Part shown: positions 293-62,046 of the stretch, in pieces
Numbering within the stretch: the first letter of the stretch is position 1
How the letters are laid out: the number at the start of each line of letters is the position of its first letter
Made by a program: the position numbers and the translations under genes
Source of the DNA: Candidatus Latescibacterota bacterium
Lineage (GTDB): Bacteria; Latescibacterota; CBDEFO01
Reading direction: 5' to 3'
NCBI GenBank assembly: GCA_965237525.1
Contig: CBDEFO010000007.1
Span: forward strand, 52,796 to 116,795
DNA: 64,000 nt
The notes under the pieces: model-generated
The model's database searches: none
What the model was told of the DNA's origin: nothing
The model's input: the letters and a program-made list of their open reading frames with translations, nothing else

Positions 293-307
293 ATACACCT
301 CCTCTGT

Positions 308-949
308 TTAGTATTGCCTTGAGGGACAGAGTTCCGCTATATTGCATTCGCGACATTTGGGAGACCTTGCTTGGCAGGTTTTCCTGCCGTGATCTATCAG
401 AAGGTGCGAAAAGAGGGTCCATTCTTCTTTTGGCACGATTTCCATAAGGTCACCTTCGATCTTGTCAGGATTCTGGTTTTCCGTTATGCCGAGTCTCTGG
501 GAGATCCTCTTTACGTGTGTGTCCACCACGACTCCAGGGATGCCGAAGGCGTTGCCAAGGACGACATTAGCGGTCTTTCTGCCGACTCCTCCGAGTTTTG
601 TGAGTTCCTCCATGGTGGAGGGCACCTCTCCGTTGTGTCTTTCTACAATAGCCCCACAGCACATCTTTATACTTTTGGTTTTGTTCCTGAAGAAGCCTGT
701 GGGATGGATTTCCCTTTCAAGTTCCAGGACGTCCACGTCTGCGTAGTCCTGGGCGGTTTTATATTTTTTGAAAAGCTCTACTGTGACCTTGTTGACTCTC
801 TCGTCCGTGCATTGGGCAGAAAGGATTGTGGCTATCAGCAGTTCTAGAGGATCGGAAAAGTTTAAGGCTGTACCTGAGTCGGGGAATTCGCCGTTGAGCA
901 TGGCGATGATCTTTTTTGTGCGTTCTTTTTGGGCTTCTTTACTCTCCAT
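308..949 (-). CDS. nth: Endonuclease III
   Basis: LLIATILSAQCTD, HhH motif LGGVGRKTAN, VDTHV, 4Fe-4S motif CQARSPKCRECNIAELC; RBS GGAGGG precedes ATG at 949. Confidence 0.95.
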   Translation of the reverse strand: MESKEAQKERTKKIIAMLNGEFPDSGTALNFSDPLELLIATILSAQCTDERVNKVTVELFKKYKTAQDYADVDVLELEREIHPTGFFRNKTKSIKMCCGAIVERHNGEVPSTMEELTKLGGVGRKTANVVLGNAFGIPGVVVDTHVKRISQRLGITENQNPDKIEGDLMEIVPKEEWTLFSHLLIDHGRKTCQARSPKCRECNIAELCPSRQY

Positions 950-994
950 TACATTACCCTCCATTAAATTACTCTAATCTACATTTGAGCAGAT

Positions 995-1385
995 CTATCT
1001 CTCCTTGAGTTTTTCTGTGTGCAATCTTAAAAGTTCCACTTCTTCTATCAGTTTTCTCTCCCGAAGGACCCTGTCTACTTTAGCTGACATTTCACCCAGA
1101 CTGAAGGGCTTGACGATGAAGTCGCTGGATCCCTCACGCATGACGTCCATAAAGGTATATTCTTCTCCCAGAGCTGCCATGATGATCACTTCGACGTGAG
1201 CGTTGTGTTCTTTTACTGTTTTGAGGAGTTCTATGCCGTCCATGCCGGGCATTCTGAGGTCAGTTATAACTATATGGAGTAGTCCCCGTCCCTGATAAGC
1301 TGAAAAGCTGAATTTCCATCTGCAGCCACCTGGGTATCGTGCCCAAGGGCCTCCAGAAAATCACCGACCATATTGAGGACACCTG
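995..1385 (-). pseudogene. Response regulator receiver domain, frameshifted and N-terminally truncated
   Basis: ORF 995-1252 has (TDLR)MPGMDG...FIVKPF; the upstream part (VLNMVGDFLEALGHDTQVAADGNSAF) is in another frame with a shift near 1285; the first strand (xxVDD) is missing at a REP-like sequence. Confidence 0.7.
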
Positions 1386-1395
1386 GGTCTGCCCC

Positions 1396-2877
1396 CTAAT
1401 GTCTACTGTCTGATGACGAATCTGTGTTGCGCCTTTCTGTCATATTTCCTATGCTCTTTTTTATTGCCTTTCCTCCTTTTATAACTGTTCTGGAGGCTTT
1501 GACCACGGGTCTGAACCAGAAATGGGCAAACTCCGTAATGCCATCTGCGGGAGTAAAGCCGTCTATGTGTCTCAGGACCCTCATGACGTGTCCTACGGTC
1601 TTAACCTGTGGCTCGTCTATCCTTCGGAGCAGGATCACGGACAGGGACCGGGTGATAGCTGAGAGTATAAAGAGGAAATGCAGCCCGTAGAGGGTGTAGA
1701 AGAAGAGGGAGATTTTGTATTCGATCAGGACCACGGCCAAGGCTCCGCCTATTATAGGTGATAAAGAGCCGGAGATATTCTGGACGAGCTTGTGACTTGA
1801 GATGTACATCGCCTTGTTTTCGTCGGGAGAGAGCTTCAGGACAAGGTTGAACGTGGTAAGCTGCTGTCCTGAGTTGAAACAGCGGACTAGGTGTACAAGG
1901 AAGAGGAGTATATAGCTTCCGGGTGAAACGAAGACCCAGAGTACGGGAAATATCGCTTTTACCGTGGCGCAGAAGGTGAGTATCGGCTTGTTGCCGAATT
2001 TATCTGCGAGGCGCCCCCAAAATCCTACTGCGTATAGACTTGCAATCTCTCCTACGGCTGTCAGGACAGCTATCCAGAGGTAAGGGACTTCGAGATATTT
2101 GATCATATAGACCATAAAGAAGGGACCGGCAAATCCGACGCTCAAGTTCCAGGACATGTCGTACACCAGGAGTCTTCTGAAGGCACTGTTCCGGAAGGGG
2201 AGTCTGAAGGTCTGGAGGAAACTTAATTTCTCACGGCTCTTTACCAGTTTTGGCTCAGGGACAGCCCGTAAGGTTAAAATAGAGGCGAGGCTAAATGCGA
2301 CGCCCGCTGCAAAGATGATCTGAAATCCCAGGATCTCACCTGCCGGCCCCGCTGTTCTCCAGTAGTCGATGAACAATCCGGCCAAGATTCCGATGATAAT
2401 GTCCGAGGCTCCTAACGCCCTTATCCTGCTCGAAAAATATCTGCCCCTTATGCTTTCAGGAATCAGATCTGAAAGCCATGACACCCTGGAGACAAAGCCT
2501 ATGGGGCCTACAAGGCCCGGAAATGCTATAATAATTATAAAGAGCCATATTCTAAGGTTGGGATAAGAACTCGCTACAACCCAGGGGAGGGCAACTATGA
2601 AGATCCTTGGGAGTCTGGAGAGGGTAAAGGAAAGGAGGCAGACTTTTTTTCTGCTTTCTATTCGTTCTATTATGTGATTGCTGAAAATCTGTGTGGAACT
2701 GAAGAGCAAAGGGAGCGAGGACAGGAGTCCTATGTGAAACTCCGATGCTCCTAATGCAAGCGCAAAACCGACTGTAAAGATACTATTGCTTCCCGCTATT
2801 GCCGCCATCGCACCCACCAGCGCGGCCTCGATAAGCAGCAGCTTCATTCCACGTTTTCGTTCCTGCTCTGTAATCAA
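1396..2877 (-). CDS. MFS transporter
   Basis: About 12 hydrophobic segments; MFS motifs 'IPESIRGRYFS' and 'WGRLADKFGNK'. Confidence 0.85.
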   Translation of the reverse strand: MITEQERKRGMKLLLIEAALVGAMAAIAGSNSIFTVGFALALGASEFHIGLLSSLPLLFSSTQIFSNHIIERIESRKKVCLLSFTLSRLPRIFIVALPWVVASSYPNLRIWLFIIIIAFPGLVGPIGFVSRVSWLSDLIPESIRGRYFSSRIRALGASDIIIGILAGLFIDYWRTAGPAGEILGFQIIFAAGVAFSLASILTLRAVPEPKLVKSREKLSFLQTFRLPFRNSAFRRLLVYDMSWNLSVGFAGPFFMVYMIKYLEVPYLWIAVLTAVGEIASLYAVGFWGRLADKFGNKPILTFCATVKAIFPVLWVFVSPGSYILLFLVHLVRCFNSGQQLTTFNLVLKLSPDENKAMYISSHKLVQNISGSLSPIIGGALAVVLIEYKISLFFYTLYGLHFLFILSAITRSLSVILLRRIDEPQVKTVGHVMRVLRHIDGFTPADGITEFAHFWFRPVVKASRTVIKGGKAIKKSIGNMTERRNTDSSSDSRH

Positions 2878-2906
2878 TCCTCAGCCTATCTTCATGAATG
2901 TGTAAC

Positions 2907-3503
2907 AGTTACCACTGGGTCAGGTTCTCAGCCAGAACGCGGTACTGTCCCTCGTGAGCTTGGGGCTGGAGGTGGACTTTCTTCATGTAGTTGAGGGGCC
3001 CCGGCTATGTGTTCAAAGTCCCTGGACAACGCTTCGAGCAAGTGCGCTCCCGGCATGTAGAGCACCCGATTGATCTGGGCAGCGGAAAGATAAGATCTCT
3101 TTCCCTCCACCATATAGAAGTCCAAAATTGACCTTTTCTCCACGTTCTCCCGGAATATGCCTGTCATAAAGAGCGTATAGTCCCTTATGTGTCTCCTTAT
3201 CTCCCACTCCCTGGAGGGATTGAAACTTTCATCTGTGACATCGGAGGACTGAGATGCCTCTATAAGCATTTCCACGACCAGTTCCAGTCTTGTGTCCTCC
3301 GAGTGCTTGATCCGATAGAGCGCGTCGGTGCGGGCAAACCTCGTCAGCATGTCGCAGATATATTCCATTATCTCGGTGTTCCAAATTCTCAACTCCGAGA
3401 AGCTCATCTGTATGAACCTGGAGAAGAAGCGCCTCAAAGACGGTTGGGGGATGTCATCAGGAGAGCCTGATCCTCCCACGTTGAAAGGATTCTCGACTTT
3501 CAT
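2907..3503 (-). CDS. Conserved hypothetical protein divergent from groES (possible C-terminal frameshift)
   Basis: 191-aa ORF (2928-3503) with 'YICDMLTRF', 'RHIRDYTLFMTGIF', 'Y..EGKRSY'; removing one C in the GGGGCCCC run near 2997 gives the tail ALNYMKKVHLQ...LTQW* ending near 2907. Confidence 0.65.
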
Positions 3504-3800
3504 CTTTCATCCGCTCCTTTCAGCCAAATAATATCATCCTTACTGGGGGGTACTATAAAATGTAATTCCAAAAGGCCCCATCGTCAAGTGTTTTCCTGTC
3601 ATCTTCGGGTTGCCTGGCCATAACCGTTGTCATTTGGGCATAGCCCGCAAATTCCGTCGGATCAAGCTGTTGCTTGCCAATTCCTTATGTCGTTGCCAGA
3701 AGTGTCCCTTCGGAGTCTGCTATTTGGGCAAAGTCTTTGAGATCCTCTGAGGTATCCTCTCCTCTGGATTCAAATATTATAGTGATAATATCTTATGTAA

Positions 3801-3859
3801 TATCAAATGTTTATGATTCAGTATCCTCTTACTTTGGAGGCAACGGCATGTGTTTTGCG
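3801..3859 (+). promoter_or_regulatory. Sigma54 (-24/-12) promoter with IHF site upstream of groES
   Basis: CGGCATGTGTTTTGCG at 3844-3859 has GG-N10-GC; TATCAAATGTTTA at 3801-3813 matches IHF consensus WATCAANNNNTTR. Confidence 0.65.
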
Positions 3860-3957
3860 CTGTGATAATCGTAGCACGTAAGCGAGCCATCAAAGATATA
3901 AAGAGGAATTCCGCCATTGTGGCCATGTCTCAAACAATTTAACAATGGAGGTTAAGT

Positions 3958-4245
3958 ATGAAGGTGAGGCCCCTATCAGACAGAATTTTAGTCAAGCGGA
4001 TCGAGGAAGGGGAGGTTCAAAAGGGGGGGATAATCATCCCTGATACTGCCAAAGAGACGCCTCAAGAGGGCGAGGTGATCGCTACTGGTCCCGGAAGGAC
4101 AGGAGACGATGGGAAGCGCATCCCCATGGAACTTAAAGTGGGGAACAGGGTTCTCGTGGGCAAGTATTCCGGCACAGAAGTCAACGTAGACGGTGAGGAG
4201 CATTTAATGATGCGCGAGGACGATGTCCTTGCTGTAATAGAATAG
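3958..4245 (+). CDS. groES: Co-chaperonin GroES
   Basis: [26 protein letters not shown]. Confidence 0.98.
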
Positions 4246-5894: not shown

Positions 5895-6400
5895 GTAAGT
5901 AGACAGTAGCCCCCGATTGAGTTTCTCGGGGGTGGGCAGTAGACAGGGCAAAACCAAGTAGACAGCAAACAGCAAACAGTAGACAGGGAAGGCACTGCCA
6001 CGTCCCACCCCATCCAAGTGCTTGTCCCCCTTACCAAGGGGGACCACAGGGGGTCCCAGTAGACGGGGCACAGCCTCTCATCCCTGTATGCTGTCTTAAT
6101 AGAATCAGGGTAGAAGGGAAGCCCGGTGTTATCCAAAGCGCCGGGCTTTTTGTTTGCCCGCAACTGGACAGGACAGACAAGAATGTCCGTCCTACCAACA
6201 TATTAACTCTTGTGGGTCACACATTCCTGTCTGACACCGTTGAGGTCGATAGAATCAGAGATTGCTTCCCCCGGATAGATTCAATCGCAGGCGCTCGCAA
6301 TGACGGTGTAGGGGGCTCGCATGAAAGCTATCGGCTTGAAATATGACATTGTCCACGCTGGGGTCATTGCGAGGGGGATGAAATCCCCCGAAGCAATCTC
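5895..6400. repeat. Cluster of mixed short repeats (AGTAGAC heptamers, REP-like hairpins, GTCATTGCGAG/GAAGCAATCTC palindromic element)
   Basis: AGTAGAC/AGCAAAC units 5899-6065; CCCCCTTACCAAGGGGG ~6026-6043; GGACAGACAAGAATGTCCGTCCTAC ~6171-6195; GAGATTGCTTC...CTCGCAATGAC 6258-6304 and GTCATTGCGAG...GAAGCAATCTC 6363-6400. Confidence 0.75.
6119..6155 (+). terminator. Rho-independent terminator after groEL
   Basis: AAGCCCGGTG...CGCCGGGCTT stem followed by TTTGTTT. Confidence 0.7.
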
Positions 6401-27792: not shown

Positions 27793-28875
27793 ATGCAAAT
27801 GAGATTAGACCAAATCGTCAGCCTGGTCGGGGGAGAGATCCTGGGAGATGGCGGCACACTAATATCGGGAGTCGCGGGCATAGATGACGCCGAACAAGGC
27901 GATATTACCTTCCTTTCCAATCCCCAATATCGCCGTTATCTCAAATCCACAAAGGCCTCTGCCTTGATCCTCCCGTCCACATCTTCTTCCCCGATTGAAT
28001 CTATCGGGGATAGCCCCCATAAAGATGAAGATTCCATTTCTATCCCCGTTATCCTTTCTGAAAACCCCTATTACTGCTTCGCCCAGGTTATGCGACTCTT
28101 CCACACACAGGAGGATGAATATCCCAAGGAGATACACCTCACTGCTCAAGTGGCCAAGACCGCCCAGATCGGCGCTGGTATATATATAGGTCCTCACGTC
28201 TGTGTGGAAGAGGGAGCAAAGATCGAAGATGGAGTTAGAATCTGTGCAAATTCCATCATAGGAAAAAACTGCAAAATAGGCCAGGGGACTCTGATATATC
28301 CAAACGTGACGATCTACAAGGAAATACAGATCGGAAAGGACGTGATAATACACTCCGGAGCTGTTATAGGGAGCGACGGTTTCGGGTTTGCCCCGGATAA
28401 TGGCAAATATCACAAGGTCCCGCAGGTAGGTACTGTGATCATCGAAGATGACGCTGAGATAGGAGCTAATACCACGATAGATCGTGCAACAATGGGCGTT
28501 ACACGGATAGGAAAAGGAACCAAGATCGACAACCTGGTTCAGATAGCCCACAATGTGGAGATAGCTGCGGACACCGTTATTGCCGCCCAGGCAGGGGTTT
28601 CTGGGAGTACAAAGATCGGGAGAAAGTGCCAGATTGGTGGCCAAGTTGGCTTCGTAGGTCATATTGAATTGGGAGACGAATCGATAGTAGGTGCGCAATC
28701 GGGAATAGCCAAATCGTTCCCCGAAAAGTCGTTCATAACAGGAAGTCCCGCAAGATCAATAGAAATAGTCAGAAAGACAGAGGCCTATCAGAGCAAGATC
28801 CCCGACCTTTTAAAGAGAGTCAAGCAGTTGGAAAAACAGATGGAAGAACTCAAAGAGGAGTTGAGGGACGGATAA
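27793..28875 (+). CDS. lpxD: UDP-3-O-acylglucosamine N-acyltransferase
   Basis: [27 protein letters not shown], hexapeptide repeats. Confidence 0.95.
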
Positions 28876-33651: not shown

Positions 33652-33725
33652 ATTCTCGGCAGACTGGCAAGGGCAAGTGCTCTTACCCCCCTCAGCACAG
33701 ATGCCCTCTTAGGTCTGCCGAGAAT
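33652..33725 (+). ncRNA. Putative structured RNA / 5' leader hairpin with C-rich loop
   Basis: 13-bp perfect stem ATTCTCGGCAGAC/GTCTGCCGAGAAT, inner stems AGGGCA/TGCCCT and GTGCT/AGCAC, loop CTTACCCCCCTC. Confidence 0.55.
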
Positions 33726-35014: not shown

Positions 35015-35040
35015 TAAACTGCGCGTGATATATACAGCAC

Positions 35041-35079
35041 AAGAGCGATCATCAAATACGATGGTCGCTCTTTTTCTTT
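35041..35079 (+). terminator. Rho-independent terminator
   Basis: AAGAGCGATCATC-N6-GATGGTCGCTCTT followed by TTTCTTT. Confidence 0.8.
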
Positions 35080-35410
35080 GTACAACACGAGAAGCTTTAC
35101 AAAACCTTCTAATCTCATTCGGAAAGACAAAGTTTAAGTTTTGCAGAGAGATAACGATTTGTCCCAACGTATGTATTCGTAGAGGCGAGCTAACCCCGGC
35201 ATACATTCGGTTTGGGTTGCTTATTTCAGGGCCCACAGGGGCGAACCCATGCGGAGAAACTCCTGCAAAAATGCTACCTTTCCGAATCACAAAAAACCTT
35301 GTAAAGACTTCTGGACTTGGAGCGTGGTTGTTCGTATATTTTATACTTGGATTCAGTCTTTGAAAAGGCCCTAGCTCAAGTTATCTGACTGTTATTGATG
35401 GAGGAGAGCA

Positions 35411-42930: not shown

Positions 42931-43074
42931 AGTGTCACCTCCTCTTTTCTATGTTATCAGATAACTAAGCTTGCTCTTTACCCTTTCCCCGATCCCCGAT
43001 TGAATCCCCAATTGTCCCCGAATGAATCTATCGGGGATCAGGGATAAGCCCAAAACAGGCGCTCAAATGAACAA

Positions 43075-45803: not shown

Positions 45804-46023
45804 ACTTGTTGTCCTCCGCTCTGAGCGCCTCCGCTTATTATGTCCCACATTCTCTACGTGGGGTTCGACATCTAAAAGGCTGACCTGGATCAATCCTACG
45901 CTCATGAAATAAGATAACGCCGGAGATAAGTCAATGTCAACCCCCAATTGAATCCCCGATTGAATCTATCGGGGGTAAATATACGAGAATAAGTCCATCC
46001 TCCGGAAAGAATACCACTGACGT

Positions 46024-47461: not shown

Positions 47462-48439
47462 CTACCAGGGAACAGGAAGGCCGAATTCAAGAGCCAATTT
47501 CTCCAACGATTTAACTGCGGTCTCGGAGATGGGAATGCCATCCTGCAAATATTCTTTCTCCTTCTTCCACGCGCGTCTACCGGGGAGGGTAGATTCGGAA
47601 TAGCCCGGAAAGGGCTTCATCTTGCTGGTCTCTTCCATCAGAAAGTCCATATCGTCCTTGAAGGCCTGGAGCGGGACGAAACACTCGATATCAAGGGCCA
47701 TGAAGAACCCGGATTGGTTGGCGCCGGTGTACTTGACGTTCTGGCGGTTGAACTCCGGAAGCATCTGACCCCCAAGGGTGCCGCTCATGATGTTGGCCAC
47801 GTGTGAGAACCCGATGCACTTGAAGAAGACCTGAGGCATCTTCTTGAAGCACTCCTCATCCCACTCCATGTGACTGGCCAGGTCCAGCATAAAGTACGGC
47901 TGATCGGGCCCGGAGGGCATGCCGAAGGCGAGCGGCGGACTCCCCTGTATCGAACCTTGAATAGTGCTGTTGTAGTCGTAGCTCGGCGATGCGTTCCTAC
48001 CCGAGAAACTAATCCCGATCAGGTCATCTCGCAGGGCCATCCGGATATACTTTCCCGAACTCCCAAGGTGATCGTGGTAGGTACTTGTAGTGACTCCGAC
48101 CCCCATCTTCTTGGCTTTAGCTATTGCCATCTGCATGGCCTTCGTGGCGACGATCATCCCGAGACCGCCGTCTCCATCCAGGGCCGCTGTCACAGGACCT
48201 TCCTTCAGAACCCGAACGTTGGGGTGCGTATTGGCTTTACCCTCCTGGAAGGCGCGCACATAGCGTTCGACCTGCACAACCCCGTGACTGACGACGCCGC
48301 GCAGCTCCGTGTCGATCAGGAGATCGGCGATCAGTTGGGCGTGATCCTCGGGAACGGGTACTTCCCGGTAAATGGACGCCACCAGCTTGCGAAGTTCCTC
48401 TACTGGAACTCGAATCCCGTCCGTCGGCGGAACGTTCAT
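47462..48439 (-). CDS. Ldh_2 family oxidoreductase (malate/L-lactate/ureidoglycolate type)
   Basis: ELRGVVSHG, LDGDGGLG, HLGS, FFMALD. Confidence 0.88.
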   Translation of the reverse strand: MNVPPTDGIRVPVEELRKLVASIYREVPVPEDHAQLIADLLIDTELRGVVSHGVVQVERYVRAFQEGKANTHPNVRVLKEGPVTAALDGDGGLGMIVATKAMQMAIAKAKKMGVGVTTSTYHDHLGSSGKYIRMALRDDLIGISFSGRNASPSYDYNSTIQGSIQGSPPLAFGMPSGPDQPYFMLDLASHMEWDEECFKKMPQVFFKCIGFSHVANIMSGTLGGQMLPEFNRQNVKYTGANQSGFFMALDIECFVPLQAFKDDMDFLMEETSKMKPFPGYSESTLPGRRAWKKEKEYLQDGIPISETAVKSLEKLALEFGLPVPW

Positions 48440-48587
48440 TATCCTCTCCTTTGTCTGTGATGCTTCGTCCCCGATTGAACCCCCGATTGACTCTATCGGG
48501 GGTCGGGGATATACCGAAGCACTTATCCTTGGCTTCTTACAGTGTAAGGTCACCGAAACTGAATGTTGCCTACCAGATTATGGTTTC

Positions 48588-56268: not shown

Positions 56269-57171
56269 TCATGCCACTTCAAAATCCAGGGCATCGAGGG
56301 ACCGGCGCAGTTGGGACTCTCCATCAGGTGAGAGCGGTGGGAAATTGCGGGGTGGACCCACCGGGGTACCGCGCCATCCAAGCATGGCCTTGATAGCGGC
56401 CATTGCGCCTGCTTCAAAGATCGGGGCAATGACCCTATTGGCCCGGGTCTGGGCCATCATGGCCTGGCGGATGTCACCGGCCTCGAAGCTCTTGCGCATC
56501 TGGACGAAGAGGCGCGGCATGATGTTATAGGTCGTGCCGATGGCTCCATCGCTGCCCATGACCATAGCGGCCAGACACATCTGGTCCGGTCCGGAGATGG
56601 CGTTGATCCGACCTTCCGAAAGGTCCACCAACTGCTGAAATAGGTACAAGTCATTATCGGTGAACTTGATCCCCGTGAAGTTGGGCACGGAATTCATAGC
56701 CTCTAGGAACTGCGGGACCGTAACGGAACTGTCCGCGTTGCGGGCTAGCCAGTAGACATAGAAGGGCAGATCGGCGGCCGCGCCAATAGCACTGTAGTGC
56801 TCGACTGCTGCCGGCAGATCGTTGGGCCTGTCGATGGGGGCCACGGAGGCGACAGCATCCGCTCCGATCTCAGCCGCGTGCTTCGCAAGTTCCACGGCGT
56901 TCTCCGTACTGGTCGCCCCTACCTGGAGGATAATCGGCACATCTCCGGCTACCTCCCTGACCACGACTTCGGCCATCTGCTTCCGCTCTCCCACGCTCAT
57001 GGCCGCGCCCTCACCCGTACTGCCGCAGACGAAGAAGCCACTGGAGCCTGCGTCCAGCAGCGCGCGCAGCAGAGGAGGAACTCGCTCTAGGGCCAGCTCT
57101 TGTCCACTGTCATCAAAGGGGGTACAGAGTGCCGGAAGTATTCCGCAAGCCAGTTTGGGTGTAGCGCACAT
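56269..57171 (-). CDS. Dihydrodipicolinate synthase/N-acetylneuraminate lyase family aldolase
   Basis: TPF, CGSTGE, GIKFT, DGAIGTTYN; ATG at 57171. Confidence 0.88.
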   Translation of the reverse strand: MCATPKLACGILPALCTPFDDSGQELALERVPPLLRALLDAGSSGFFVCGSTGEGAAMSVGERKQMAEVVVREVAGDVPIILQVGATSTENAVELAKHAAEIGADAVASVAPIDRPNDLPAAVEHYSAIGAAADLPFYVYWLARNADSSVTVPQFLEAMNSVPNFTGIKFTDNDLYLFQQLVDLSEGRINAISGPDQMCLAAMVMGSDGAIGTTYNIMPRLFVQMRKSFEAGDIRQAMMAQTRANRVIAPIFEAGAMAAIKAMLGWRGTPVGPPRNFPPLSPDGESQLRRSLDALDFEVA

Positions 57172-57666
57172 TAGTTTCCTTCCTTTCTCATTCCCGTACC
57201 TGACGGGCGTAGGCGATCCCCGCCCCCCGATAGAGTCAATCGGGGATGAACTCGACTCTCGAACCCGGTATCGGATCAAGGCTAAGGTAATTGCAGCTGA
57301 GCCGCTGTGATATTTGGGACACTTTCGATCGTTTTACTGGAGCATCGTTGCAAATCAAAATAGAATCCATACACTGTCCCGTACTTCAACTGTTAGGCAA
57401 GAGGATGACGGGTATAAGGTACTTTATCTGTGTGGGGCATGTCAACAGGAAAATAGCCATGTTGGTCAGAAAATATCAGGATCATTTTGCGACTTGGAAA
57501 GATAGCACTTTTCAAGGATCTATCGCACACGGAACATCTATCGGGGGGGACGCGTGTCTGCCCTGAAAATACGGGCGAACCAGTTCGTGCTTTGCTGCCA
57601 CCACCTCATCCTCCCTGACAAAGCGCCCACGGCGCCTCACCCCAGCGTATACATATGTTGGGGTAA

Positions 57667-59871: not shown

Positions 59872-61959
59872 GTGCTCGTTGTTATGTCTGCTTCGGTATA
59901 TCTATACGCTGAAGAGACCCAATCGGTAACCGAAGATCCGGAGGAGGTCATAGTCCTGGAGGAGGTGGTTGTGACTGCCACCCGGACGGATCAGACGCTC
60001 AGAGACATTCCCGCCAACGTGACGATTCTTGACAGGGCGGATATCCAGCGATCGGCGGCTCAGACTCTGGACGATCTCTTGCGGCAGGTACCGGGCTTCA
60101 GTCTCTTTCGACGCTCAAGCAGCGTCGTGGCCCACCCCACCACACAGGGCGTGTCCCTGCGCGGAATCGGGGCCAGCGGATCCAGCCGTACCCTGATTCT
60201 TCTTGATGGAATGCCCTTAAACGATCCGTTTGGGGGCTGGGTGCAGTGGAGCAAGGTCCGGATGGAGAGCGTTGAGCGTATCGAAGTGCTCCGAGGGGGA
60301 GGATCTCATATCTGGGGCAACTACGCCTTGGGCGGAGTCATTCACATCATCACATCGCGACCTCAGAAGAAGACAGTAACGCTCTCCGGCAAGCTAGGAA
60401 ATCGGAAAACCGCGACCTTGGACTTTTCTGCCAGCGATCGCTTTGGATCAACCGGTCTGGCGCTTGAAGGAAGCTATTTCAATACCCGGGGGTATCCGAT
60501 TGTTCGAGCGGATCAGCGGGGACAGATAGACGTTAACGCCGATTCCGAAAACAAGACCGTCAGGGTAAAGCTGACGCAGAATCTCTCGCCGACAGCTAAG
60601 CTGTATCTACAAGGCGGCCTATTCAGTGAAGAACGTGACAACGGTACGCCCCTCACCCACAACAGCACAGACGCGGGATACATCGGGATAAGCACTACAC
60701 TTCAGAGGTCGGATGGAAGCAAGTGGACCCTCACAGGCTTTTCGCACCTCCAGCGGTTCAAGAGTTTTTTCTCGTCCCAGGCCTCCGACCGGAATTCGGA
60801 AGGTCCGGCCCTCGATCAGTTTAATGTCCCTTCGCAGGCAGTAGGGATAACACTGGAGTGGCTCAAGCCGATAAGCGCAGAGCATCTGCTCACGGCAGGA
60901 TCGGACCTTCGATGGCTTTCGGGAGAGACCAACGAGGAGTTCTTCCTCAAGTCCAACCGGTTTGTCCGGCGCCGCAGGGCAGGTGGAGACCAGCAGGTGA
61001 TGGGAATTTACCTCCAGGACATCTTTATCCCCCGGCACCGCTGGCAGATCACGTATGGCAGCAGGGTCGATTTGTGGCGCAGTTTTGATGGTTCTCGCCT
61101 TGAGCGGAATCTGGAGACGGATGAGGTCATACGAGAGGATACATTCGCCGATCGAACCCGCTGGGTCTTCAACCCTAAGGTGGGGCTGCGCTTCGATGCG
61201 ACCGACCGCGTCTCCTTTCGAAGTTCCCTTTATCGGACCTTTCGCGCACCGACGTTGAACGAACTCTTCAGACCCTTTCGGGTCCGAAACGATATTACCG
61301 CGGCCAACGAAAACTTGAATCCGGAGCGACTGCACGGTGGGGAGGTTGGAATCGACTATGTCACCTCCTCCCTGACCGGTCGCCTGACAGGCTACTGGAA
61401 CGAGGTGAAGGGATCTGTCGTCAACCTGACAATCGGAAGCGGACCAGGGCAGGTTGACCCCTGCGGGTTCGTTCCCGACGGTGGTCTCTGCCGTCAGCGG
61501 CACAATCTGGACAGGACACGAATCCGTGGGATCGAAGCAGAGTTGACCTATCACAACCGTTCATTTTGGACTGGGTCTATAAGCTATCTCTTCAACGAAA
61601 GCAGAATCGTGAGCGCACCGGCTCAGCCGGAGCTCGAAGGCAGGCGCCTTCCTCAGGTGCCAGAGCATCATCTAGTCCTGAAAATAAGTTATGCCAACCC
61701 GTCTCTACTGGTCGCCAGCGTTCAGGGACGGTATGTGGGCAATCAATTTGAAGACGATATCAATTCGCTTGAGCTTGGGGATTTCGGCGTGGTAGATCTC
61801 TTCGTGTCGCGACCGATCCAATCGGGAAGGGAGATTTTCTTTCAGGTGGAAAATCTTTTCGATCGATCCTACGCCGTCGGCAAGACAGGCGGTGGTCTGG
61901 TAACGATCGGTGCACCGGTACGTTTCCATGCAGGATTTCGAATGATGATGCCCGACTGA
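59872..61959 (+). CDS. TonB-dependent receptor (possibly damaged at both ends)
   Basis: EEVVVTATR TonB box, plug LDGMPLND/ERIEVLRG/GGVIHI, FRAPTLNEL, VENLFDR. Confidence 0.88.
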   Translation: MLVVMSASVYLYAEETQSVTEDPEEVIVLEEVVVTATRTDQTLRDIPANVTILDRADIQRSAAQTLDDLLRQVPGFSLFRRSSSVVAHPTTQGVSLRGIGASGSSRTLILLDGMPLNDPFGGWVQWSKVRMESVERIEVLRGGGSHIWGNYALGGVIHIITSRPQKKTVTLSGKLGNRKTATLDFSASDRFGSTGLALEGSYFNTRGYPIVRADQRGQIDVNADSENKTVRVKLTQNLSPTAKLYLQGGLFSEERDNGTPLTHNSTDAGYIGISTTLQRSDGSKWTLTGFSHLQRFKSFFSSQASDRNSEGPALDQFNVPSQAVGITLEWLKPISAEHLLTAGSDLRWLSGETNEEFFLKSNRFVRRRRAGGDQQVMGIYLQDIFIPRHRWQITYGSRVDLWRSFDGSRLERNLETDEVIREDTFADRTRWVFNPKVGLRFDATDRVSFRSSLYRTFRAPTLNELFRPFRVRNDITAANENLNPERLHGGEVGIDYVTSSLTGRLTGYWNEVKGSVVNLTIGSGPGQVDPCGFVPDGGLCRQRHNLDRTRIRGIEAELTYHNRSFWTGSISYLFNESRIVSAPAQPELEGRRLPQVPEHHLVLKISYANPSLLVASVQGRYVGNQFEDDINSLELGDFGVVDLFVSRPIQSGREIFFQVENLFDRSYAVGKTGGGLVTIGAPVRFHAGFRMMMPD

Positions 61960-62046
61960 ATCTATCGGGGATGAAGCTGTAGAGAAGTTCTCATAACGTC
62001 TCATGATAAAGGAGGTCAAACTATGATTAAATCAAGGAGCTTCGAA

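Follow-up and report, generated by a model that had tools for sequence, protein, structure and literature searches.

A small palindromic repeat, probably mobile, lies in frame in lpxD of a Latescibacterota bacterium

The window analysed here is a stretch of 64,000 nts from a Candidatus Latescibacterota bacterium (C7:52796-116795 of the assembly, hereafter G000). It contains, on the forward strand, an intact lpxD gene (27793..28875) encoding the UDP-3-O-acylglucosamine N-acyltransferase LpxD (360 aa). The assignment relies on the open reading frame, on the best database homologs, which are named LpxD (E down to 1e-113), and on matches to solved LpxD structures (E 2.6e-71); the residues H253 and N254 of the catalytic region are invariant in the alignment of orthologs. 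The neighbouring ORFs are presumably bamA, skp and an lpxC-fabZ fusion, as judged from their translations alone.

Within lpxD, a 23-nt palindromic unit occupies positions 27988..28010 of the forward strand and consists of a left arm TCCCCGAT (27988-27995), a 7-nt loop TGAATCT (27996-28002) and a right arm ATCGGGGA (28003-28010), the arms forming an 8-bp stem. An earlier note on this DNA had described such a palindrome in frame inside lpxD, and both the sequence and the ORF agree with it, the unit being read as S-P-I-E-S-I-G-D. As RNA, the 23-mer is predicted to form a hairpin of -13.4 kcal/mol, and the 27-mer hairpin alone has a z-score of -3.64 against shuffled sequences. The palindrome had also been placed inside a larger inverted frame formed by ATCTTC (27981-27986) and GAAGAT (28027-28032). 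This outer pair is best attributed to chance, because it adds 1.3 kcal/mol, the z-score of the 52-mer (-1.76) is within the shuffle range and 14 of 200 shuffles fold equally well.

The unit is located in an expanded loop of the N-terminal domain of LpxD, which was delimited from alignments and a structural model as residues 61-85 (27973..28047, forward strand) and includes 14-15 residues absent from orthologs, the limits of the inserted DNA being approximate. In each of the 18 LpxD orthologs compared from the same phylum, precisely the repeat-bearing loop is shorter by 14-15 residues, and all 18 come from genomes without any exact match to the repeat pattern. The earlier note had staked its claim that the repeat lengthens the loop on orthologs of this kind, and none of the 18 carries the loop sequence. 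The segment is likewise missing from 18 of 18 more distant database orthologs (47-56% identity), so that only the query and its congener have it in the alignment, and the LpxD of P. aeruginosa (6uec) shows a single 14-residue gap at the loop. The length of this loop varies among orthologs, one of which (P0027) has its own, different 6-residue extension here. By every comparison available at the sequence level, the lpxD segment is an insertion, a conclusion drawn from distant orthologs, none above 56% identity. In an AlphaFold2 model of the LpxD monomer, built from a 20-sequence alignment (mean pLDDT 75), residues 62-85 are predicted to form a coil between the strands 57-61 and 86-89, with pLDDT below 50 at residues 69-80; as modelled, the insert region fits a flexible loop of the N-terminal domain.

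Of the 14-15 extra residues, the 23-mer covers only about 8, and the remaining ones (SPHKDEDS...), corresponding to about 19-22 nts, have no clear repeat origin; a separate event, or growth of the loop ahead of the unit, may account for them. Directly 3′ of the hairpin, the sequence CCCCCATAAAG at 28015-28025 resembles the left arm and loop start of a second unit (compare CCCCGATAAAGTCATTCGGGG on contig C8), with no right arm after it. It could be a decayed second insertion that brought the total (42-45 nts) to a multiple of three, or it could be due to chance. By inspection, only about 9 of 21 positions of the CCCCCATAAAG region fit the unit.

A congener, G001, with about 95% nucleotide identity to G000, has the identical LpxD insert. 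The two LpxD proteins are 96% identical and the lpxD genes 97.0% identical, and 131 nts around the insert are the same in both. The exact repeat pattern is found in 210 copies in G000 and 178 in G001, and in none of the 39 other same-phylum genomes searched. Contigs from the public runs X2, X4 and X10 span the lpxD insert without indel, those of X9 and X10 covering parts of the lpxD stretch only; X2 differs very little from the window and is possibly its source sample, while X4 shows the same differences as G001 and is therefore not an independent sample. An empty lpxD allele was found in none of the sampled genomes and contigs, in all of which the copy is fixed. Since the insert is identical in G001, the lpxD copy was probably fixed before the two congeneric species split. 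The insert lies in a stretch of 157 nts free of differences between G000 and G001, which is the second longest of 65 such intervals in 2.3 kb; by our own arithmetic, about 0.8 intervals of this length are expected at the local divergence of 2.8%. An exceptional nucleotide conservation around the insert was thus rejected, the stretch being about as long as this divergence predicts.

The lpxD unit belongs to a large family. Its core, CCCCGAT-N7-ATCGGGG, was found at 579 sites with at most two mismatches in the 4,576,560-nt (4.58-Mb) assembly (268 exact, 186 with one mismatch and 125 with two), while about 15 are expected by chance genome-wide according to our own estimate. The unit consensus is [T/C]CCCCGAT-WGANTCW-ATCGGGG[A/G], and exact copies, once oriented, read R-[T/C]-CCCCGAT-T-G-A-N-T-C-T-ATCGGGG-[A/G]. 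In a set of 260 oriented exact copies, T (150) and C (101) prevail at position -1, and A (151) and G (102) at position +21. These outer bases pair as T..A (139) or C..G (85) in 224 of the 268 exact copies, so that the unit is a hairpin of 23 nts, in which a stem of 8 bp encloses a 7-nt loop with GANTC (any N) at its centre.

In the window, the 23-mer pattern has six matches with at most two mismatches, where 0.05 are expected, and none of 100 shuffles reached six. A search with the looser 21-nt core added a seventh copy at 5911..5931, which is intergenic and has one mismatch. The other copies were located by motif search. Those at 43015..43037 and 45953..45975 are both intergenic, the former within a nested composite with half-units (42986-43044) and the latter with an exact core. 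Two further copies with exact cores, placed with the help of the gene calls, are at 48480..48502, 52 nts inside the longest ORF 47462-48553 (reverse strand), and at 57224..57246, 34 nts inside the longest ORF 56269-57279 (reverse strand), and both probably lie 5′ of the true start. A degenerate copy with two mismatches, at 61949..61971, overlaps the stop codon of the ORF 59872-61959 (forward strand). The statement of the earlier note that the motif is otherwise intergenic in the window thus holds with a reservation: in our gene calls, the copies at 5911, 43015 and 45953 are intergenic, the one at 61949 runs over a stop codon, and those at 48480 and 57224 are inside longest ORFs, though probably before the true starts.

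The family also includes nested composites, in which copies lie inside the loops of older copies (e.g., C8:303083 and C1:13237), and a 27-nt subfamily of the unit with an ACAGG(C) tail. Several other repeats were observed. Short repeats accompany the hairpin genome-wide, for example at 42986-43044 of the window, with GTAGACAG(T) runs beside the C..G subfamily. The centre GCGACGAAGC of a "GTCATTGCGAG...AAGCAATCTC" element is a frequent hairpin insertion point. Longer imperfect inverted repeats at 35016-35097 (38-nt arms, 74%) and 33652-33725 (24-nt arms, 79%) of the window are unrelated to the hairpin family. At C8:737651-754161 of G000, a tandem family of genes of about 750 aa was found, each starting with a 27-nt variant unit (CCCCGAATGACTYTATCGGGG plus the ACAGG tail), which reads ...LSPNDFIGD... 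about 46 nts into the longest ORF; G000 has additional 27-nt units in tandem there that G001 lacks.

The distribution of the family relative to genes was examined with gene calls from our own crude codon-usage model (3603 genes, 80.7% of the genome). On these calls, 423 of the 579 sites are intergenic, 131 intragenic and 25 over a gene end, in a genome that is 81% coding. Many of the "intragenic" copies lie less than about 100 nts from the longest-ORF start and probably precede the real one. Deep intragenic sites were therefore defined as those at least 150 nts from the start and at least 60 nts from the stop, with a positive coding score on both sides, and 44 sites of G000 (at most two mismatches) fall into this group. 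Seven of the 44 have loops unlike the family and are probably due to chance, leaving about 37 family copies within genes. Their translations include PIDSIG (12), PIESIG (10), PRLNLSG (7) and PDRFNRG (6), so that the proteome search proposed by the earlier note recovered the unit, translated as PI[ED]SIG, PRLNLSG or PDRFNRG, inside about 37 other genes. The deep copies use only four stop-free classes of frame and orientation, the classes containing TAG or TGA being absent as must be the case inside ORFs. A preference for frame 1 (PI[ED]SIG) was considered, and with about 22 against 13 deep copies, where 17.5 each are expected, no clear bias was seen.

For three of these genes, comparison with homologs places the unit at a length difference. 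In the methionyl-tRNA formyltransferase Fmt, the structure 4iqf has a 7-residue gap exactly at SPIDSIG; a MeaB-like GTPase shows gaps of 4 and 3 residues at the unit relative to a solved homolog; and in a Gfo/Idh/MocA dehydrogenase, nine residues (GPVPEGFNR) face a gap in the close homolog 4h3v. In this last case, the 27 nts are absent from both G001 and 4h3v, pointing to a gain in the G000 lineage.

The intergenic copies were distributed over tandem (75.8%), convergent (11.8%) and divergent (12.4%) spacers, which account for 71%, 12.5% and 16.5% of the spacer bases, respectively, and no preference for gene 3′ ends was found among them (137 versus 114). They hence track spacer length and not spacer type or gene end, which argues against a role as terminator or mRNA stabiliser as the explanation for their abundance. 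The copies are mostly singletons with few doublets, 58 of 571 neighbour distances being below 200 nts.

The two congeners, which are syntenic in blocks with about 94-97% identity, allow the turnover of the family to be followed. The comparison covers 2.8 of the 4.54 Mb of G001, which is a single 4.54-Mb contig; a site was called anchored when both of its 200-nt flanks could be placed in the other genome, and decayed when 3-5 mismatches were found there. Among the 579 sites of G000, 226 were anchored, of which G001 shares 156, has 16 in decayed form and lacks 54. Conversely, 203 of the 303 sites in the compared part of G001 were anchored, with 157 common to G000, 15 decayed and 31 absent. Exact copies are in modest excess among lineage-specific sites compared with shared ones, both in G000 (32 of 54 versus 72 of 156, p = 0.11) and in G001 (21 of 31 versus 72 of 157, p = 0.03). 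This is the direction expected if many of the lineage-specific copies are recent gains, most of the presence/absence differences being unpolarised as to gain or loss.

The length differences at these sites are 19-20 nts (29 sites), 27 (12), 26 (4), 21-22 (7), 18 (6) and 12 (6), and 12-nt half-units were also gained or lost between the congeners. Within genes and away from their ends, the differences are multiples of three (27, 24, 21, 18 and 15), and the 19-20-nt differences that fall in gene calls are at most 60 nts from a gene end or in IS copies. Where coding sites are polymorphic, the whole length difference is due to the unit (+21 at C8:1372288, +27 at C4:172313 and at C8:963021).

At 33 sites, the other genome has at most 5 nts where the 23-mer stands (2 nts at 2 sites, 3 at 16, 4 at 11 and 5 at 4). 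None of these 33 empty/filled pairs shows a clean insertion or a target-site duplication, a single 6-nt flank repeat being present at C8:963021. Seven of the eleven 4-nt remnants correspond to NCGN (TCGT twice, TCGG, TCGA, ACGA, ACGT and GCGT), and nine of the 3-nt remnants are CGA after a changed base, giving ACGA. Three multi-copy elements, namely one of IS3 type and the repeats "GTCATTGCGAG...AAGCAATC" and "CTACCACAG", supply many of the 33 junctions, and these do not represent independent events. Elsewhere, 2-11 target bases are replaced, as at C7:414421, where 11 nts give way to 26.

The IS3-type element was seen as multi-copy transposase ORFs, rve-like from their translation, with a hairpin just upstream of or inside orfB (G000 C4:44338-44913, C8:81819-82415, C8:596041-596637 and C8:1935236-1935832). 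The copies of this element at anchored sites of G001 have no hairpin and carry ...GGGACGATTCC... in its place. The presence of the hairpin in the G000 copies and its absence from the anchored G001 copies indicate that it was carried along by the IS as this spread in G000.

A candidate mobilising enzyme was sought in both genomes. A profile search for Y1_Tnp (PF01797) gave no match in G000 (96.6% complete) or in the single-contig G001, while 6 of 14 reference genomes used as a control were matched. No parent IS with ends matching the arms was found, and pairs of half-sites 300-4000 nts apart show no recurrent length. No gene is consistently flanked by copies either; the 18 genes with copies on both sides are ordinary metabolic genes and one DDE transposase.

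The family extends beyond these two genomes. In a scan of species-representative genomes, the exact core was found, among the matches listed, in unrelated MAGs assigned to "Deltaproteobacteria", the PVC group, Bacteroidales, Thermodesulfobacteriota, Nanoarchaeia and others. Five MAGs of other phyla have 34, 36, 21, 10 and 6 copies with at most one mismatch, and the reversed control none. Four of these MAGs, with 10-36 copies, were searched for Y1_Tnp and gave 6-13 matches each. At the six Y1 loci examined among the 38 matches, no hairpin was present within about 1.5 kb, and a link to RAYTs in other phyla was set aside on these six loci. In the PVC-group and "uncultured bacterium" MAGs, the core is a perfect 21-bp palindrome with the loop TGAWTCA. 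Complementary flanks extend it in both MAGs (ACCA...TGGT and GGA...TCC), making their stems longer than in G000.

The earlier note had drawn a parallel with Rickettsia palindromic elements (RPEs), which Ogata et al. reportedly described within genes in 2000. RPE-1 is about 100-150 bp long and adds 30-50 residues. The likeness consists in a dispersed palindrome present in both intergenic and coding DNA and inserted in frame in housekeeping genes that are left open, here lpxD, fmt and the genes of the MeaB-like GTPase and the Gfo/Idh/MocA dehydrogenase. The present unit, set apart from RPEs by description, is in contrast about five times smaller (19-23 nts, 7-9 residues per event), and while Rickettsia are reduced, intracellular bacteria, the host here is a Latescibacterota of free-living type with a 4.6-Mb genome. 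The RPE-like reading is thus supported by the comparison of orthologs and by the approximately 37 other genic copies, and it is qualified by the size of the unit, by its occurrence beyond the lineage and by the fact that it explains about 8 of the 14-15 extra residues. The in-frame insertion of palindromic repeats in genes is recorded for RPEs in PMC3733652.

Judging from sequence, the unit is a very small palindromic mobile repeat of a class known as such, which comprises REP, SDR and RPE-like elements, the family itself being a new member; it appears closer in kind to REP and SDR elements than to RPEs. REPs are described as imperfect palindromes of 20-40 bp in hundreds of copies, with GTAG- and CGTC-tagged superfamilies, the latter without known transposase according to the same sources (PMC3116915, PMC3733652). 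Di Nocera et al. (PMC3733652) describe REPs inside genes, including DNA-repair and tRNA-modification genes, where they encode short inserts. The unit resembles REPs as a short imperfect palindrome with a high copy number (579 sites), some of them genic. It differs from them in that no RAYT was found in G000 or G001. REPs are mainly extragenic, favour gene 3′ ends or convergent spacers and form REPIN doublets; here the picture is mixed, with 423 of the 579 sites intergenic, the copies mostly singletons and neither gene 3′ ends nor convergent spacers favoured. GTAG is present within 8 nts of 58 of 454 copies (12.8%), compared with 5.8% at random positions, which falls short of a REP tag, while CGTC is depleted (4 of 454 copies, 0.9%, versus 7.7% at random positions).

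The nearest elements in kind are the SDRs. SDR1-8 of Nostocaceae, reportedly described by Elhai et al. in 2008, are said to be noncoding modules of about 21-27 nts with no known enzyme. The present family shares with them its small size, the presence or absence of copies at orthologous sites (54 of 226 and 31 of 203) and nesting. SDRs are described as nesting in other repeats, and SDR5 as targeting HIP1, GCGATCGC, a palindrome containing CG, which it enters between bases 3 and 4 (PMC4390886, PMC5861425). They are given in PMC5861425 as reported only in Nostocaceae. The family described here, compared with SDR1-8 by description only, differs by its occurrence in several phyla and by a target resembling NCGN with 2-5 bases replaced. 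MITEs, for their part, are non-autonomous palindromic elements of 50-500 bp with terminal inverted repeats and target-site duplications, and they are sometimes found in frame in genes. They resemble the unit in their palindromic form and in-frame insertion and differ from it in that duplications were seen at none of the 33 junctions and no parent IS has matching ends.

Taken as a whole, these observations make it very probable that a tiny noncoding palindromic mobile repeat was inserted into the codons of a variable loop of LpxD before the two congeneric species split, and was tolerated. A copy of the 23-nt unit would have entered the loop of the N-terminal domain in the ancestor of both species; because the net added length was a multiple of three and the frame free of stops, lpxD would have stayed open with the unit read, as predicted, as SPIESIGD, and the protein would tolerate the insert because it falls within a disordered loop linking two beta strands. 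On this evidence, the lpxD copy most likely represents a fixed and tolerated copy within a family that is still active or was so until recently. As for its movement, the units would be pasted in by a trans-acting activity other than a Y1/RAYT transposase, without target duplication and with replacement of 2-5 bases, in many cases a tetranucleotide centred on CpG. An event would typically add 19-20 nts net, and within genes only the rarer gains of 21, 27 or similar would survive selection. That an undescribed, non-RAYT mechanism pastes a pre-formed 23-nt hairpin at CpG-centred tetranucleotides in exchange for 2-5 bases, and that the activity or the cassette crossed phyla, is put forward tentatively, as a conjecture with less than even chances.

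An alternative source of the family would be a RAYT (Y1/HUH) transposase that moved the unit as an ordinary REP and is now lost or located in unassembled or unsampled DNA, the copies being relics. Size, palindromic form and dispersal all fit REPs, the GTAG excess near 58 of 454 copies (5.8% at random) and the Y1_Tnp matches (6-13) of four other-phylum genomes with 10-36 core copies point the same way, and genic REPs are on record, as in PMC3733652. However, Y1_Tnp is missing from G000, at 96.6% completeness, and from the one contig of G001; the congeners nonetheless differ at 54 and 31 anchored sites, the lineage-specific copies being the more perfect ones; and the hairpin accompanies none of the six Y1 loci examined out of 38. 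The copies are moreover singletons and not REPIN doublets (58 of 571 distances below 200 nts), and insertion of the IS200/IS605 type deletes no target bases, whereas 2-5 nts are replaced here. A RAYT origin is therefore considered unlikely, though it retains some weight. Less credit still is given to the idea that the ancestor of the genus had a long loop already, for unrelated reasons, and that the unit then took the place of part of it or was formed there by conversion from another copy, adding little or no length. The variable length of the loop, with the different 6-residue extension of P0027, the replacement of 2-11 bases by insertions elsewhere (11 nts by 26 at C7:414421) and the roughly 19-22 nts of extra length that are not repeat-like can be cited in its favour, but none of the 36 orthologs compared approaches this loop length, and the unit accounts for the entire difference at the polymorphic coding sites (+21, +27 and +27).

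Another possibility is that the lpxD hairpin is kept for a function, either as an mRNA structure tuning translation or decay of the lpxD-lpxC/fabZ message or as a protein-binding DNA site. This is the least credible of the readings and is held to be very improbable. The hairpin is stable (-13.4 kcal/mol, z -3.64), it sits in the 157-nt stretch identical in G000 and G001, and it is unchanged in all contigs aligned to it; yet that interval is only the second longest of 65 in 2.3 kb with about 0.8 expected, and run X4 matches the differences of G001 and is not independent. In addition, the intergenic copies show no preference for spacer type or 3′ ends, and copies are freely gained and lost between the congeners. 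The insertion of a mobile repeat into LpxD, tolerated and retained in both species, remains the preferred reading of the locus.

The in-frame "decoration" of essential enzymes by palindromic repeats does not appear to be peculiar to Rickettsia, since it concerns LpxD, Fmt, a MeaB-like GTPase and sugar dehydrogenases in a free-living, uncultured phylum. For annotation, such units explain odd loop insertions and over-long predicted N-termini. The family also offers material for the study of REP-like movement without a RAYT, to be compared with CGTC REPs and cyanobacterial SDRs: two near-complete congeners of about 95% identity, some 85 present/absent sites, defined junctions, no Y1 transposase found in either congener and a core that recurs in other phyla. 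If units are indeed pasted in as cassettes, they would be among the smallest mobile DNA units known and would keep supplying essential enzymes with loop insertions of 7-9 residues.
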